Of a DNA stretch of 64,000 bases, positions 61,900 to 64,000 are shown one piece after another. Numbering within the stretch: the first letter of the stretch is position 1; the number at the start of each line of letters is the position of its first letter. Source of the stretch: an uncultured Rickettsiales bacterium (GTDB lineage: Bacteria; Pseudomonadota; Alphaproteobacteria; Rickettsiales; UBA1997). The DNA is taken from contig CAKVGI010000006.1 of the NCBI GenBank assembly GCA_934747265.1, positions 10,606 to 74,605 of the forward strand. The letters run 5' to 3'. A model generated the notes under the pieces. That model saw only the letters and a program-made list of their open reading frames with translations, was not told the DNA's origin and made no database searches. The position numbers and the translations under genes were made by a program.

Positions 61900-62185
61900 A
61901 AAACTCCTTCATCCATTACTCGTAAGGCAAAAGCTAATACAGAATATTGCTTCTCTATTTTCTCTTTTTATATTAGGAAGTTAATCATAGAACCCCATTC
62001 TTTCTATTCAGTTTTATAATAGGAAAGTTGAGGAAGTTAATACTAATTTCTCTATCATTCTTTTGTAAGAGAAAAATTAATAAAGTCAGTACCCCATTAT
62101 TTCCCCTGTAAAGAGAGAAGTCTATCACCTTGTAAAAAGAAGAATTTATATGAAATACCCCCCACCCCCCTTACCAGGCACACTC
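61900..62185 (+). repeat. composite element F: long-unit arm (decayed), left boundary of the 61.9-64.0 kb variant
   Basis: About six units of ~45-48 nt carrying ..TTTGTAAGAG.., ..TGTAAAGAGAG.. and ..TTGTAAAAAG.. The arm ends in ATACCCCCCACCCCCCTTACCAGG (62155-62178). Confidence 0.7.
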
Positions 62186-62324
62186 TTCACTTATTATTAC
62201 TCACAAACTCCTTATTTTTAAAGAAACCATTAGGAAACCATTAGTTTTCTCCATCTAGAATAAGCAAGCCATATGGGTGTTTTATTAGCCACTTTTTTAT
62301 ACGAGTATAAATCTGATATTTGTT

Positions 62325-62495
62325 TACTTCGTAAACTCATTTCCGACTTCGCTGACCGACAGGCTACAATGATTGTGCAAGCACATCATTGTTCAGCTTT
62401 GTGCTTCGCCTTCACTTCGTTCAGTTGGCACTTCGCAGACCAACAAGTTAAAATGATTCGGTAAACCGATCATTTTTCTGCTTTGTGCTTCGTCC
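62325..62495 (+). repeat. hairpin-repeat block HR2 (two units of ~80 nt; opposite orientation to HR1)
   Basis: Units contain CTTCGC.GACC.ACA, the hairpin AATGATTGTGCAAGCACATCATT or AATGATTCGGTAAACCGATCATT, and GCTTTGTGCTTCG. The reverse complement resembles HR1 by eye. Confidence 0.6.
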
Positions 62496-62509
62496 ATTTC
62501 TATAATATC

Positions 62510-63000
62510 TGGTATATTTTTATCTAATTTATTTTTTGTTTAATCTGTTTTTTCTTATATGATTTGTTTTCTTTTGTCTAATTTATTTTTTTATATATAA
62601 TTTATTCTTATATGATTTGTTTTGTTCTTATCTAGTTGTTCTTATATAATTTAATTTATTCTTATATACTTTATTTTTTATGATTTACTTTTATATAATT
62701 TATTTTTACATAATTTACTATCATCTATTTATCTTAACTAGTTATTTTTTATTTAGTTTATTCTTATACAATCTGTTTTGTTCTTATATAATTTGTTTTA
62801 TTCTTATCTAATTATTCTTATATGATTTAATTTATTCTTATTTACTTTATTTTTTTATGATTTACTTTTATATAATTTATTTCCTTCTTATATAATTTGT
62901 TTTCTTTTGTTTAATTTATTTTTTATATATAATTTATTCTTATATAATTTGTTTTTGCTTAGTTTATTCTTATATGATTTATTTTTAGTTTTATCTAAAT
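62510..63000. repeat. AT-rich satellite (degenerate ~15-24-nt units with higher-order repeats of ~180 and ~330 nt)
   Basis: The motif TTATTCTTATAT(A/G)ATTTGTTTT recurs many times. Longer blocks starting near 62553 and 62885, and near 62640 and 62817, are near-duplicates. Confidence 0.75.
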
Positions 63001-63523
63001 CTAATTTTAAGTTATTTATAAACTCTCTTAACCATTTTATTAATAATGAAGGGGAACAGTTCATAAACTTTACAGCTTTTCTTATACCTACATTATTTAA
63101 ATAATATTTAAGAAATCTTTCTTTATCATTATATGTAAACTTCTTTACTCTATCACTAAATGATCTTTTACATTTTTTATATATATGTATATATATGTAT
63201 ATATATTATTTTGATAATTATTGTTTTTACTACTTTTTTACTGTTTCTTTTAATGTTGTTTTTTTATTCTTTTATTCTTTTATTCTTTTATTCTTTATTT
63301 ATTCTTATATATTATTCTTTATTTATTCTTTCTATTGTTCTTTTATATTATTTTTTTTATTGTTCTTTATTCTATTCTATTTATTTATTATTTTTTTATT
63401 ATTTTTTGATATATTTTTTATTCTTTTATATATTTCTTTATTCTTCTTTATATTGTTCTTTTTTATATATTCATAATCACCACAATGAGTACATCTTATA
63501 ATATTTGTATTTGGTTTGGACAT
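62888..63523 (-). pseudogene. IS1-family InsA-like (zinc finger + HTH) transposase N-terminal pseudogene
   Basis: Minus strand: MSKPNTNIIRCTHCGDYEYIKKN.., then low-complexity sequence with in-frame stops. It continues in the same frame as ..YKKCKRSFSDRVKKFTYNDKERFLKYYLNNVGIRKAVKFMNCSPSLLIKWLREF. This matches the IS1 InsA pattern C..C...Y.C..C+K.F...FTY....K......G.G.R.......S...+..WL+. No InsB/DDE part follows. Confidence 0.5.
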
Positions 63524-63604
63524 GATTGTTATTATTAATCTATTTATTATTTTATTTATTAATTTATTAATTAACTGTATTTGTTTATTAATTTAACTGT
63601 ATTT

Positions 63605-63690
63605 ATGATAATATGATAATATGATAATATGATAATATAATAGTATAATAATATAATAATATAATAGTATAATAGTATAATAGTATAATG
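63605..63690. repeat. 8-nt microsatellites
   Basis: (ATGATAAT)4 followed by mixed (ATAATAGT) and (ATAATAAT) units. Confidence 0.8.
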
Positions 63691-63711
63691 TTAAGTTTAA
63701 GAAATTAAGTA

Positions 63712-64000
63712 TTGAGAGAAGAAGGAGGGAGGAGTGTGATGATAAGGGGGGGTAAGGGGGTGGTATTGACTACGTCAGGTTCCCCTTACAAAGCTGGGCG
63801 AAAAGGGAATATTGGCTACGCCAATTCCTCCCCTTACAAATTGAGGCAAAGGGAAGTATTTTACAACCAACTTTCCCTTTACAAATACAACAGATAAAAA
63901 CACCAACTATATCAACTATCCTGCATAAAATTGACACATGATTAAAATCTCTATATTGACCCCGCCATTACAGAAGAAGACAAAAGGGATATCTTATAAC
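63712..64000 (-). repeat. composite element G: inverted long-unit arm (cut by the window end)
   Basis: GATAAGGGGGGGTAAGGGGGTGGTAT (63741-63766) is the inverted counterpart of 62155-62178. Units of ~47 nt follow (ATTGACTACGTCAGG..CCCCTTACAAAG..) and decay toward 64000. Confidence 0.75.

Follow-up and report, generated by a model that had tools for sequence, protein, structure and literature searches.

The window, by which we mean the whole stretch of 64,000 nucleotides analysed here (contig CAKVGI010000006.1 of an uncultured Rickettsiales bacterium), contains near its right end two arrays of GC-rich hairpins in opposite orientations, and in this paper we looked at the 1560 bp that lie between them. 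We are confident that this interior is a dead, satellite-swollen insertion sequence (IS) of the IS1 family that sits in a GC hairpin, that the arrays are targets and not products of its transposase, and that the clade to which it belongs inserts specifically into such hairpins. An earlier note on this DNA had described the place as a giant variant of a composite repeat that recurs elsewhere in the window. The building blocks that it named are all found in place: the sequences ATACCCCCCACCCCCCTTACCAGG (62155-62178) and GATAAGGGGGGGTAAGGGGGTGGTAT (63741-63766), an AT satellite, microsatellites, two hairpin units and a broken InsA-like reading frame.

The InsA-like frame lies on the minus strand and is interrupted by stop codons. 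When its two readable pieces were joined at a repeated IYK, using real residues only, the reconstructed frame found intact proteins of 117-172 aa with 84% identity over 98% of the query, including 156-aa orfA homologues; the wider protein family found in this way carries the JGI label 'transposase-like'. The contigs that encode the 156-aa protein (L094-L098), which come from gut metagenomes, hold a near-intact IS, whose ends are the same sequences that are read in the window from 63738 downwards and from 62179 upwards. BLAST of the interior against the intact IS results in six collinear segments that are separated only by satellites and hairpin repeats, and no base is left over: each belongs to the IS itself or to a satellite or hairpin repeat that lies within it (Table 1). 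The window copy has retained its two terminal inverted repeats, its start codon, the first CxxC, the helix-turn-helix (HTH) and the A7G slippery site, and is missing about 390 bp of the DDE domain. The fragment matches the model NF033558 with 25-30 bits (E = 1.5e-5 to 3e-7), only the N-terminal part being left.

The intact element has 962 bp when the L094-L098 sequence is completed with the right end that is kept in strain L003. It runs from the left end CACACTGTTCACTCCTTCTT... through orfA to the slippery sequence ATAAAAAAGGGG and then, in the -1 frame, through ...WLAYSRWRDKIIAIHIGKG...YTDGNSCYD...SKGKTKTHMIEAINSSLRDNIARMNRK...; its inverted repeats (left CACACTGTTCACTCCTTCTT..., right CACACTCTTCACTTATTATT...) can both be recognised in the window. 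ATAAAAAAGGGG stands at the end of the conserved part of orfA, and the -1 frame continues from it into the DDE domain in L094-L098, L100 and L102; orfA and the DDE domain are predicted to be fused by a -1 frameshift on A7G. The frameshift-fused transposase matches NF033558 ('IS1 family transposase') with 117.6 bits against a cut-off of 100, along positions 1-199 of 199, and PF03400 with 30.5 bits (cut-off 24.1), which bears out the earlier suggestion that the reading frame is IS1/InsA-like. Annotated IS1-family transposases, including that of E. coli IS1, have an identity of at most 30% to it. A further family trait, the 9-bp target duplication, was found around 11 complete clade members (0-1 mismatch) and not around the window copy (5/9). 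Judged by its sequence, with an InsA-like zinc finger and HTH, an IS1-type DDE domain and terminal repeats, the element is a member of the IS1 family, and the window copy is a fragment of such a member.

One of the questions raised by the size of the window copy regards the origin of its satellites. They probably arose in place, by slippage of the IS's own AT-rich sequence, because they are collinear with the intact IS, which has a single unit copy at the same spot (for example, CTGTATTTATGATAATATAATG in the intact IS is found as the run CTGTATTTA(TGATAATA)n... in the window). When each satellite was aligned to the IS, the scores were not significant against shuffles, as these sequences are of low complexity, and therefore the case for an origin in place rests on collinearity and on the flanking sequence. 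In a genome of ~25% G+C, as this locus illustrates, a dead IS can be remodelled fast, through slippage, invasion of hairpin repeats and deletion between 5-bp repeats.

The choice of target can be read from the sequences that abut the IS. The left end directly follows CCCCCCCTGATAA in L094/L097, CCCCCCTGATAAGG in L095/L098, TCCCCCCTTACAAGG in L096, within a long array beside a core, and CTCCTCTTGCAAGAG in L099, at the inner end of a long array beside rho. In the window it abuts C5TTAC7TTATCAT, and the right end is followed by CCTGGTAAGGGGGGTGGGGGG. A sister IS with 85% DNA identity abuts CCCCCCTAAAG, TCCCCCCTTTAGG and CCCTCCCCCTTTAGG. All nine junctions (the two ends in the window, L099, L094/L097, L095/L098, L096 and the three sites of the sister IS) are located at the boundary between the loop and the 3' stem of a C-tract hairpin. 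Even under a generous definition 0.28% of the window's positions qualify as such a site, and therefore nine junctions out of nine are not the result of chance; the link that had been drawn between an IS1-type element and the hairpin arrays is real and non-random. The flanks vary from one IS copy to another (a gene, or arrays of the short or the long type, the latter in either orientation), which makes the arrays targets and no part of the IS.

A scan of JGI metagenomes with the family alignment returned 80 relatives, and the 11 complete copies mentioned above, with clean ends and 9-bp duplications of at most one mismatch, are among them. At least nine of these duplications are centred on the loop of a C-rich/G-rich hairpin, as in cccc TCCGATGGA-IS-TCCGATGGA gggg and cccc GCCTTCGCG-IS-GCCTTCGCG ggg. 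One relative (L107) is found inside a symmetric C6TAC7...G6TAG6 hairpin, and in other bacteria more remote members of the clade occupy solitary hairpins, with plain 9-bp duplications. From these sequences it appears that an IS1 clade chooses the loops of GC-stem hairpins in several bacterial lineages, with a 9-bp duplication that spans the loop. This is modestly new; a decayed IS1-family element in a hairpin-array target is in itself an ordinary kind of object.

Three observations weigh against this reading. The subclade of L127, L132, L140 and L141 is found in AT-rich, hairpin-free sites, and therefore the preference belongs to part of the family. For the closest IS no full-length copy with both flanks on one contig was recovered, and therefore its 9-bp duplication is carried over from clade members that are less closely related. 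Around the window copy there is no convincing duplication. The inverted repeats of the hairpin-free subclade begin with GCATTGTTTATTT. By comparing subclades that differ in their targets it should be possible to map what determines target choice, and an element of 962 bp is small enough for direct tests of target recognition.

A mechanism that fits these data can be suggested. In live copies orfA would provide the zinc finger and HTH, and the -1 frameshift on A7G would fuse to them the IS1-type DDE domain; the element, with its terminal inverted repeats CACACTSTTCACT..., would cut with a 9-bp stagger centred on the loop of a C-tract/G-tract hairpin. In all likelihood the window copy was inserted into the array family's innermost double-tract hairpin (C5-TTA-C7, loop, G6-T-G6). 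A deletion between GGAGA repeats then took most of the DDE domain, two hairpin-repeat units invaded the copy, and it probably swelled as its AT-rich sequence slipped into satellites.

The arrays themselves are known in the window from composite repeats, which consist of a long-unit array, an AT core and a short-unit array. The long-unit array has units of ~48 nt, each made of a C-tract/G-tract hairpin and a linker, with two linker types that alternate; the short-unit array has ~25-nt units built on CCCCCCTTATCAGGGGGG. In both arrays the GC hairpins nearest the core are near-perfect, and with distance from it they degenerate to AT-rich sequence. The core is AT-rich and 200-400 nt long. Its two borders are related termini in inverted orientation: one is C6-TTA-C6-TTATCA-G6, and the other has the same C6/G6 design with a GTCAGTC..GACTGAC hairpin where the first has TTA. 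The three cores (20991-21206, 29415-29650 and 58958-59375) align to one another at scores of 79-82 and share the conserved palindrome TTTGTTTTAT..AAAACAAA.

With this architecture at hand, we find it very improbable that the locus is a giant variant of the composite repeat, in which, as the earlier note proposed, the arrays are amplified transposase- or InsA-binding ends and the AT cores what is left of degraded cargo. An IS1-type remnant does sit between two arrays, and IS copies of the clade regularly adjoin arrays. Yet the interior, which was said to take the place of the core, scores like shuffled cores against them and lacks the palindrome; it is one IS remnant with satellites and hairpins lodged in it, and holds no core-like sequence. 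The layout of the composite repeat, with a long array on one side and a ~25-nt short array on the other, is also not found, since both flanks are of the long type and inverted. The terminal inverted repeats of the intact IS do not resemble the long or short units above the level of shuffles. The cores are IS-like in composition only: they give AT-rich alignments of ~55% identity to the intact IS, among them one with a borderline score (the core of the second composite repeat, E2; 28 against 17.7 +/- 2.1) that we take as compositional, and the elements at 20.5, 29.5 and 59 kb, which are most of those in the window, carry no IS. Moreover, the arrays that neighbour IS copies differ in type and orientation while the IS end is always at the hairpin's loop/stem boundary, and distant clade members use solitary hairpins with plain 9-bp duplications. 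Intact copies have ends unrelated to the arrays, as the note had reckoned would speak against it, but they do co-occur with arrays, because the IS inserts into array hairpins. In this association the arrays come first and their hairpins attract the IS, and the note was wrong on cause and on architecture. The 'giant element' is a false lead, and the IS1 link does not explain the origin of the arrays.

The arms on both sides of the IS were aligned, with the junction hairpins left out, to the long arrays of the first two composite repeats (E1, 20540-20945; E2, 29700-29940). The left arm matches them in the plus orientation (z = 10.4 and 12.8) and the right arm as its reverse complement (z = 26.6 and 22.5), and the opposite orientation of either arm gives background level. 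A profile of the long unit matches the right arm on the minus strand (E = 1e-5 to 0.02) and the left arm weakly, with all matches there on the plus strand (E = 0.13 to 1.7); wherever this profile matches in the 64 kb, it does so inside a known element. By these alignments both arms are members of the long-unit family and are mutually inverted, and they are not close copies of each other; nor are they like the ends of the IS or an AT core. The claim of inverted arms therefore stands for their orientation, but their mutual likeness is weak (z = 2.7), and the significant inverted match at the junctions (score 39 against 21 +/- 2.6 for shuffles) covers the C-tract half-hairpins and the ~30 nt inward of them, and is for the most part made by the terminal inverted repeats of the IS. 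Similarly, an inverted array does run to the window's end, but from ~63766 and not from 63712, as 63712-63738 is the left end of the IS. Between the arms there is a single terminal hairpin of the short type, which is split by the IS. When the sequence was followed beyond 64000, as had been advised, the right arm ended near 64030 and was followed by leuS, which ends at ~64119 (contig L093 from the same sample).

Since repeats can mislead an assembler, a chimera that falsely joins two arrays through IS-like reads has to be considered, and other assemblies do break here (L004 ends at 62534 and L093 starts at ~62697). We regard it as extremely improbable: a 21.9-kb contig from another sample (L187) has 100% identity over 59377-64000 and spans leuS, arm, IS, arm and SIMPL, and the same right-end junction is found in strain L003. 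Because this independent contig is identical across the whole locus, the structure is real.

Another question is how the arms came to be inverted. Read outward from the IS, both flanks give the loop, the G-tracts and a long array; one insertion in one array would leave the C-tract half on one side. This symmetry, together with flanks that agree at only 5/9, favours an inversion or recombination between IS copies, and so does an IS-free relative without the inverted array (L002). In L002 the array on the SIMPL side passes through an intact C6-TGATAA-G6-TAA-G6 hairpin (CCCCCCTGATAAGGGGGGTAAGGGGGG) and goes on into units of the same orientation and an AT core. That two IS copies, each in an array hairpin of its own, recombined or underwent an inversion to give this arrangement is in our judgement an evenly poised proposition. 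The gene order of L002 differs on both sides, which makes it an imperfect 'empty site', and the reciprocal product of an inversion was not found in ~70 kb of this genome.

One alternative is that a palindromic pair of long arrays, in plus and minus orientation around a double-tract hairpin, already existed, that a single IS inserted into the central loop and that the duplication has mutated since. The flanks, when joined, do form a near-perfect long hairpin (ATACC-A-C5-TTA-C7, loop, G6-T-G6-TAT), and L107 is found in just such a symmetric C6-TA-C7...G6-TA-G6 hairpin, where the duplication also has two mismatches. The copy is old enough, with 4-13% divergence and large internal changes, but four differences in 9 bp are far more than the IS ends next to them have accumulated (87-98% identity). 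Neither the window nor related contigs gave an example of inverted long arrays without an IS between them, the SIMPL-side hairpin of L002 leads into units of the same orientation and a core, and the arms are not close copies of each other. We hold this simple insertion for possible though somewhat doubtful, and lean to the two-copy exchange.

A second decayed copy was seen at 9250-10393 of L099 (GCA_964318845.1, CAYCTF010000040.1); it has no AT satellite and adjoins another long array at its inner end. As it shares decay features with the window copy at another locus, either the insertion is old or a derivative has moved, and this is a point against the account of the window copy given above. 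It could suggest that the decayed IS, alone or with an adjacent array, is a non-autonomous element that intact copies still move in trans, all the more as the L099 copy, beside rho and not leuS, has the same microsatellite positions and the same hairpin insertion between MDE and IYT, and as the window copy has kept most of both its terminal repeats. However, the two copies are only ~84% identical over their shared part, for which old common descent and rearrangement fit equally well, the L099 copy belongs to a different assembly, and the window copy is without an intact duplication. We therefore consider such movement improbable.

Other strains differ at this place. Similarity to the window is lost at 61801 in L001, at 62043 in L002 and at 62252 in L003. 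Among contigs that encode an identical SIMPL protein, L001 has no array and different neighbouring genes upstream, L002 and L005 have an array that leads to an AT core and tRNA-Lys, and L003 has the same IS insertion with its right part less deleted. This fits a view of the SIMPL-leuS locus as a rearrangement hot spot. Array loci are strain-variable rearrangement points, which matters when genomes of uncultured gut Rickettsiales-like bacteria are assembled or compared.

Table 1. Coordinates of the decayed IS, its junctions and arms, and the composite repeats of the window (IS nt, nucleotide of the intact element)
Feature	Position	Strand	Basis or remark
SIMPL gene	61005-61721	minus	Left neighbour of the left arm
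Left arm, strongly decayed long (~48-nt) hairpin-unit array	61893-62154	plus	Unit layout, alignment, weak profile matches
Half of target hairpin, ATAC-C6-A-C6-TTACCA-GG	62155-62178	plus	Same junction in strain L003
Candidate left target-site duplication CTTACCAGG	62170-62178
Decayed IS1-family insertion sequence, 1560 bp	62179-63738	minus	Right inverted repeat ends at 62179, left at 63738; collinear BLAST against intact L096/L003
IS right end (last 69 nt), with right inverted repeat CACACTCTTCACTTATTATTACTCAC...	62179-62247	minus
Deletion of ~390 bp between GGAGA repeats, removing most of the DDE domain			Right end joined to IS nt ~502; L003 keeps more here
IS nt 436-502: IYTRIKK codons, A7G slippery site ATAAAAAAGTGG (~62290), first DDE codons	62248-62314	minus	98.5% identity to L096
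Two ~80-nt hairpin-repeat units (HR2-type)	62315-62489		Between MDE and IYT codons
IS nt 380-436	62490-62546	minus
AT satellite	~62547-62961		Bracketed by duplicated IS nt 380-414; absent from the similar L099 copy
IS nt 190-414: second zinc-finger half (YKKCKRSF, one Cys mutated) and HTH of orfA	62962-63186	minus	96% identity to L096; NF033558 E = 1.5e-5
AT-rich microsatellites TATATATATG, TTTTATTC and others	63187-63458		~270 nt replacing ~26 IS nt between the zinc-finger CxxC pairs
TTTTATTC microsatellite	63262-63429
IS nt 61-163: 5' leader, ATG at 63523, first CxxC MSKPNTNIIRCTHCG	63459-63559	minus
Leader microsatellite expansions: 12-mer TTATTAATTTAT, 8-mers TATGATAA, TATAATAG	63560-63675		Intact IS has one unit copy here
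TATGATAA/TATAATAG microsatellite	63604-63689
IS nt 1-63, with left inverted repeat (reverse complement CACACTCCTCCCTCCTTCTTCTCTCAATAC...)	63676-63738	minus	87% identity to L096
Other half of target hairpin, A-TGATAA-G7-TAA-G5-TGGTAT	63739-63765	plus
Candidate right target-site duplication ATGATAAGG	63739-63747		Agrees with left copy CTTACCAGG at 5/9
Right arm, inverted long-unit array	63766-64000, on to ~64030	minus	Alignment, profile, extension from L093
Composite repeats	~20500-21560, 29330-29930, 58730-59560		Long-unit array, AT core, short-unit array
Composite-repeat remnants	27090-27280, 46520-46690

The window as a whole is a gene-dense segment of a bacterial chromosome with ~25% G+C, with the housekeeping genes dnaX, ftsK, ftsA, rlmE, greA and lysS and four tRNAs. 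Contigs nearly identical to it come from human and animal gut metagenomes, and its DnaX has 79-81% identity to proteins that are labelled 'MAG: Rickettsiales bacterium' at NCBI. Some neighbours of the repeats can be mentioned here. An HNH endonuclease gene (203 aa, 27636-28247, minus strand) is located between a core remnant (27128-27240) and tRNA-Ala (28298-28374). Two large paralogous genes (44313-46499 and 46937-48520) lack a Pfam match and contain many internal repeats as well as stretches rich in lysine and glutamate; over 230 nt, at their 3' ends and in the sequence that follows, they are 95% identical (46307-46536 against 48328-48557), and a short-array hairpin lies 3' of the first of them.

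Hairpin repeats of ~80 nt, in two sequence subtypes, are inserted in the IS transposase gene at three positions, between MDE and IYT, between NRK and SKR, and after SSLR. Such repeats are found in the window at 62315-62489 and 58470-58700 and also in L094 (~1262), L095 (1023-1170), L003 (1-233) and L102-L104 (~815). The insertion between MDE and IYT occurs also in L099 and in protein P0006, and comparison of L095 with L096 shows that the insertion in L095 is flanked by a short A-rich repeat. The interior units and the array at 58470-58700 share a design, but their sequence similarity is not significant. HR2-type repeats may resemble the Rickettsia palindromic elements, as both are short palindromes that insert in coding sequence, here of an alphaproteobacterium annotated as Rickettsiales-like; unlike these, the units described here come in tandem pairs or triplets.

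The short-array terminus was also met outside this lineage. A contig scan found its 23-nt string CCCCTTRCCCCCCTTATCAGGGG as an exact match in 75 stretches (L018-L092) of metagenome-assembled genomes from many phyla, mostly sponge symbionts (Poribacteria, Entotheonella, Binatia and others); the loci have 36-66% G+C. It gave no match from the window's genome or from any AT-rich relative. In the 13 of 75 loci that were translated the string is in frame (PPDKGGKGG), near the N-terminus of DUF559 nuclease genes and of large restriction/methylase-like genes. A second, inverted copy is often nearby, and in L029 the string is part of tandem 101-nt arrays that include the gene's first ~45 nt. No transposase of the IS1 clade was found in these cross-phylum loci, and no DUF559 gene in the window, where only motif matches of 9-10 residues occur. 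As part of an unlikely reading, the 27-nt double-tract hairpin that recurs in frame in sponge symbionts of several phyla might hint at a widely shared mobile mini-hairpin, or at a common host factor that recognises the hairpin.

As to what the arrays are, searches of Rfam with the window (gathering level), with 58000-64000 (E-value level) and with 18 motif loci returned only tRNA/rRNA and chance matches, and a literature search on the hairpin sequence found nothing relevant. The nearest known objects are clusters of repetitive extragenic palindromic (REP) sequences, bacterial interspersed mosaic elements (BIMEs) and REPINs. Like these, the arrays are multi-copy, intergenic, GC-rich hairpins, here in an AT-rich genome, and the inverted core termini resemble a REP doublet with a long spacer. 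They differ in their direct units, the two alternating linkers, the gradient of outward decay and the AT-rich spacer of 200-400 nt. A RAYT-type transposase did not turn up in the 64 kb, in which no systematic search for RAYT was made. It is an unlikely idea that the arrays with AT cores are an undescribed self-propagating repeat, with REPIN-like inverted C6-TTA-C6-TTATCA-G6 termini around an AT spacer, in which new units are added beside the core and older ones are pushed outward to decay, and that a dedicated IS1 clade has specialised, in its evolution, on these and similar GC hairpins as safe places to land.

The IS itself can be compared with two groups. With the IS1 family (E. coli IS1, ISAcma4 and others) it shares the InsA-like zinc finger and HTH, a DDE domain fused by a predicted -1 frameshift on an A-run, a length of just under 1 kb, terminal inverted repeats and, in the clade, 9-bp target duplications. 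It differs from them in protein sequence (identity of 30% or less), in its inverted repeats and in the strong preference for loops of GC-stem hairpins, where E. coli IS1 favours regions rich in AT; the window copy, moreover, no longer functions. The second group is the ISs that target REP sequences, which include IS1397 and ISKpn1 (IS3), ISPpu9, ISPpu10, ISPa11 and IS621 (IS110) and ISRm22 (IS4); a survey of REP targeting covers five families, IS3, IS110, IS4, IS256 and IS5, and does not include IS1 (PMC1525189). In both cases insertion is repeated and position-specific within intergenic palindromic hairpins, and an IS in a repeat cluster is a hot spot of rearrangement (PMC1525189). The clade described here differs in that its 9-bp duplication spans the whole loop and in that its targets are C-tract/G-tract hairpins, arrayed or solitary, in several lineages. 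Judged from its junctions, with insertion at a fixed position of a repeated hairpin far above chance, the IS1 clade belongs to this REP-targeting class, and the choice of target is predicted to be made by the transposase.

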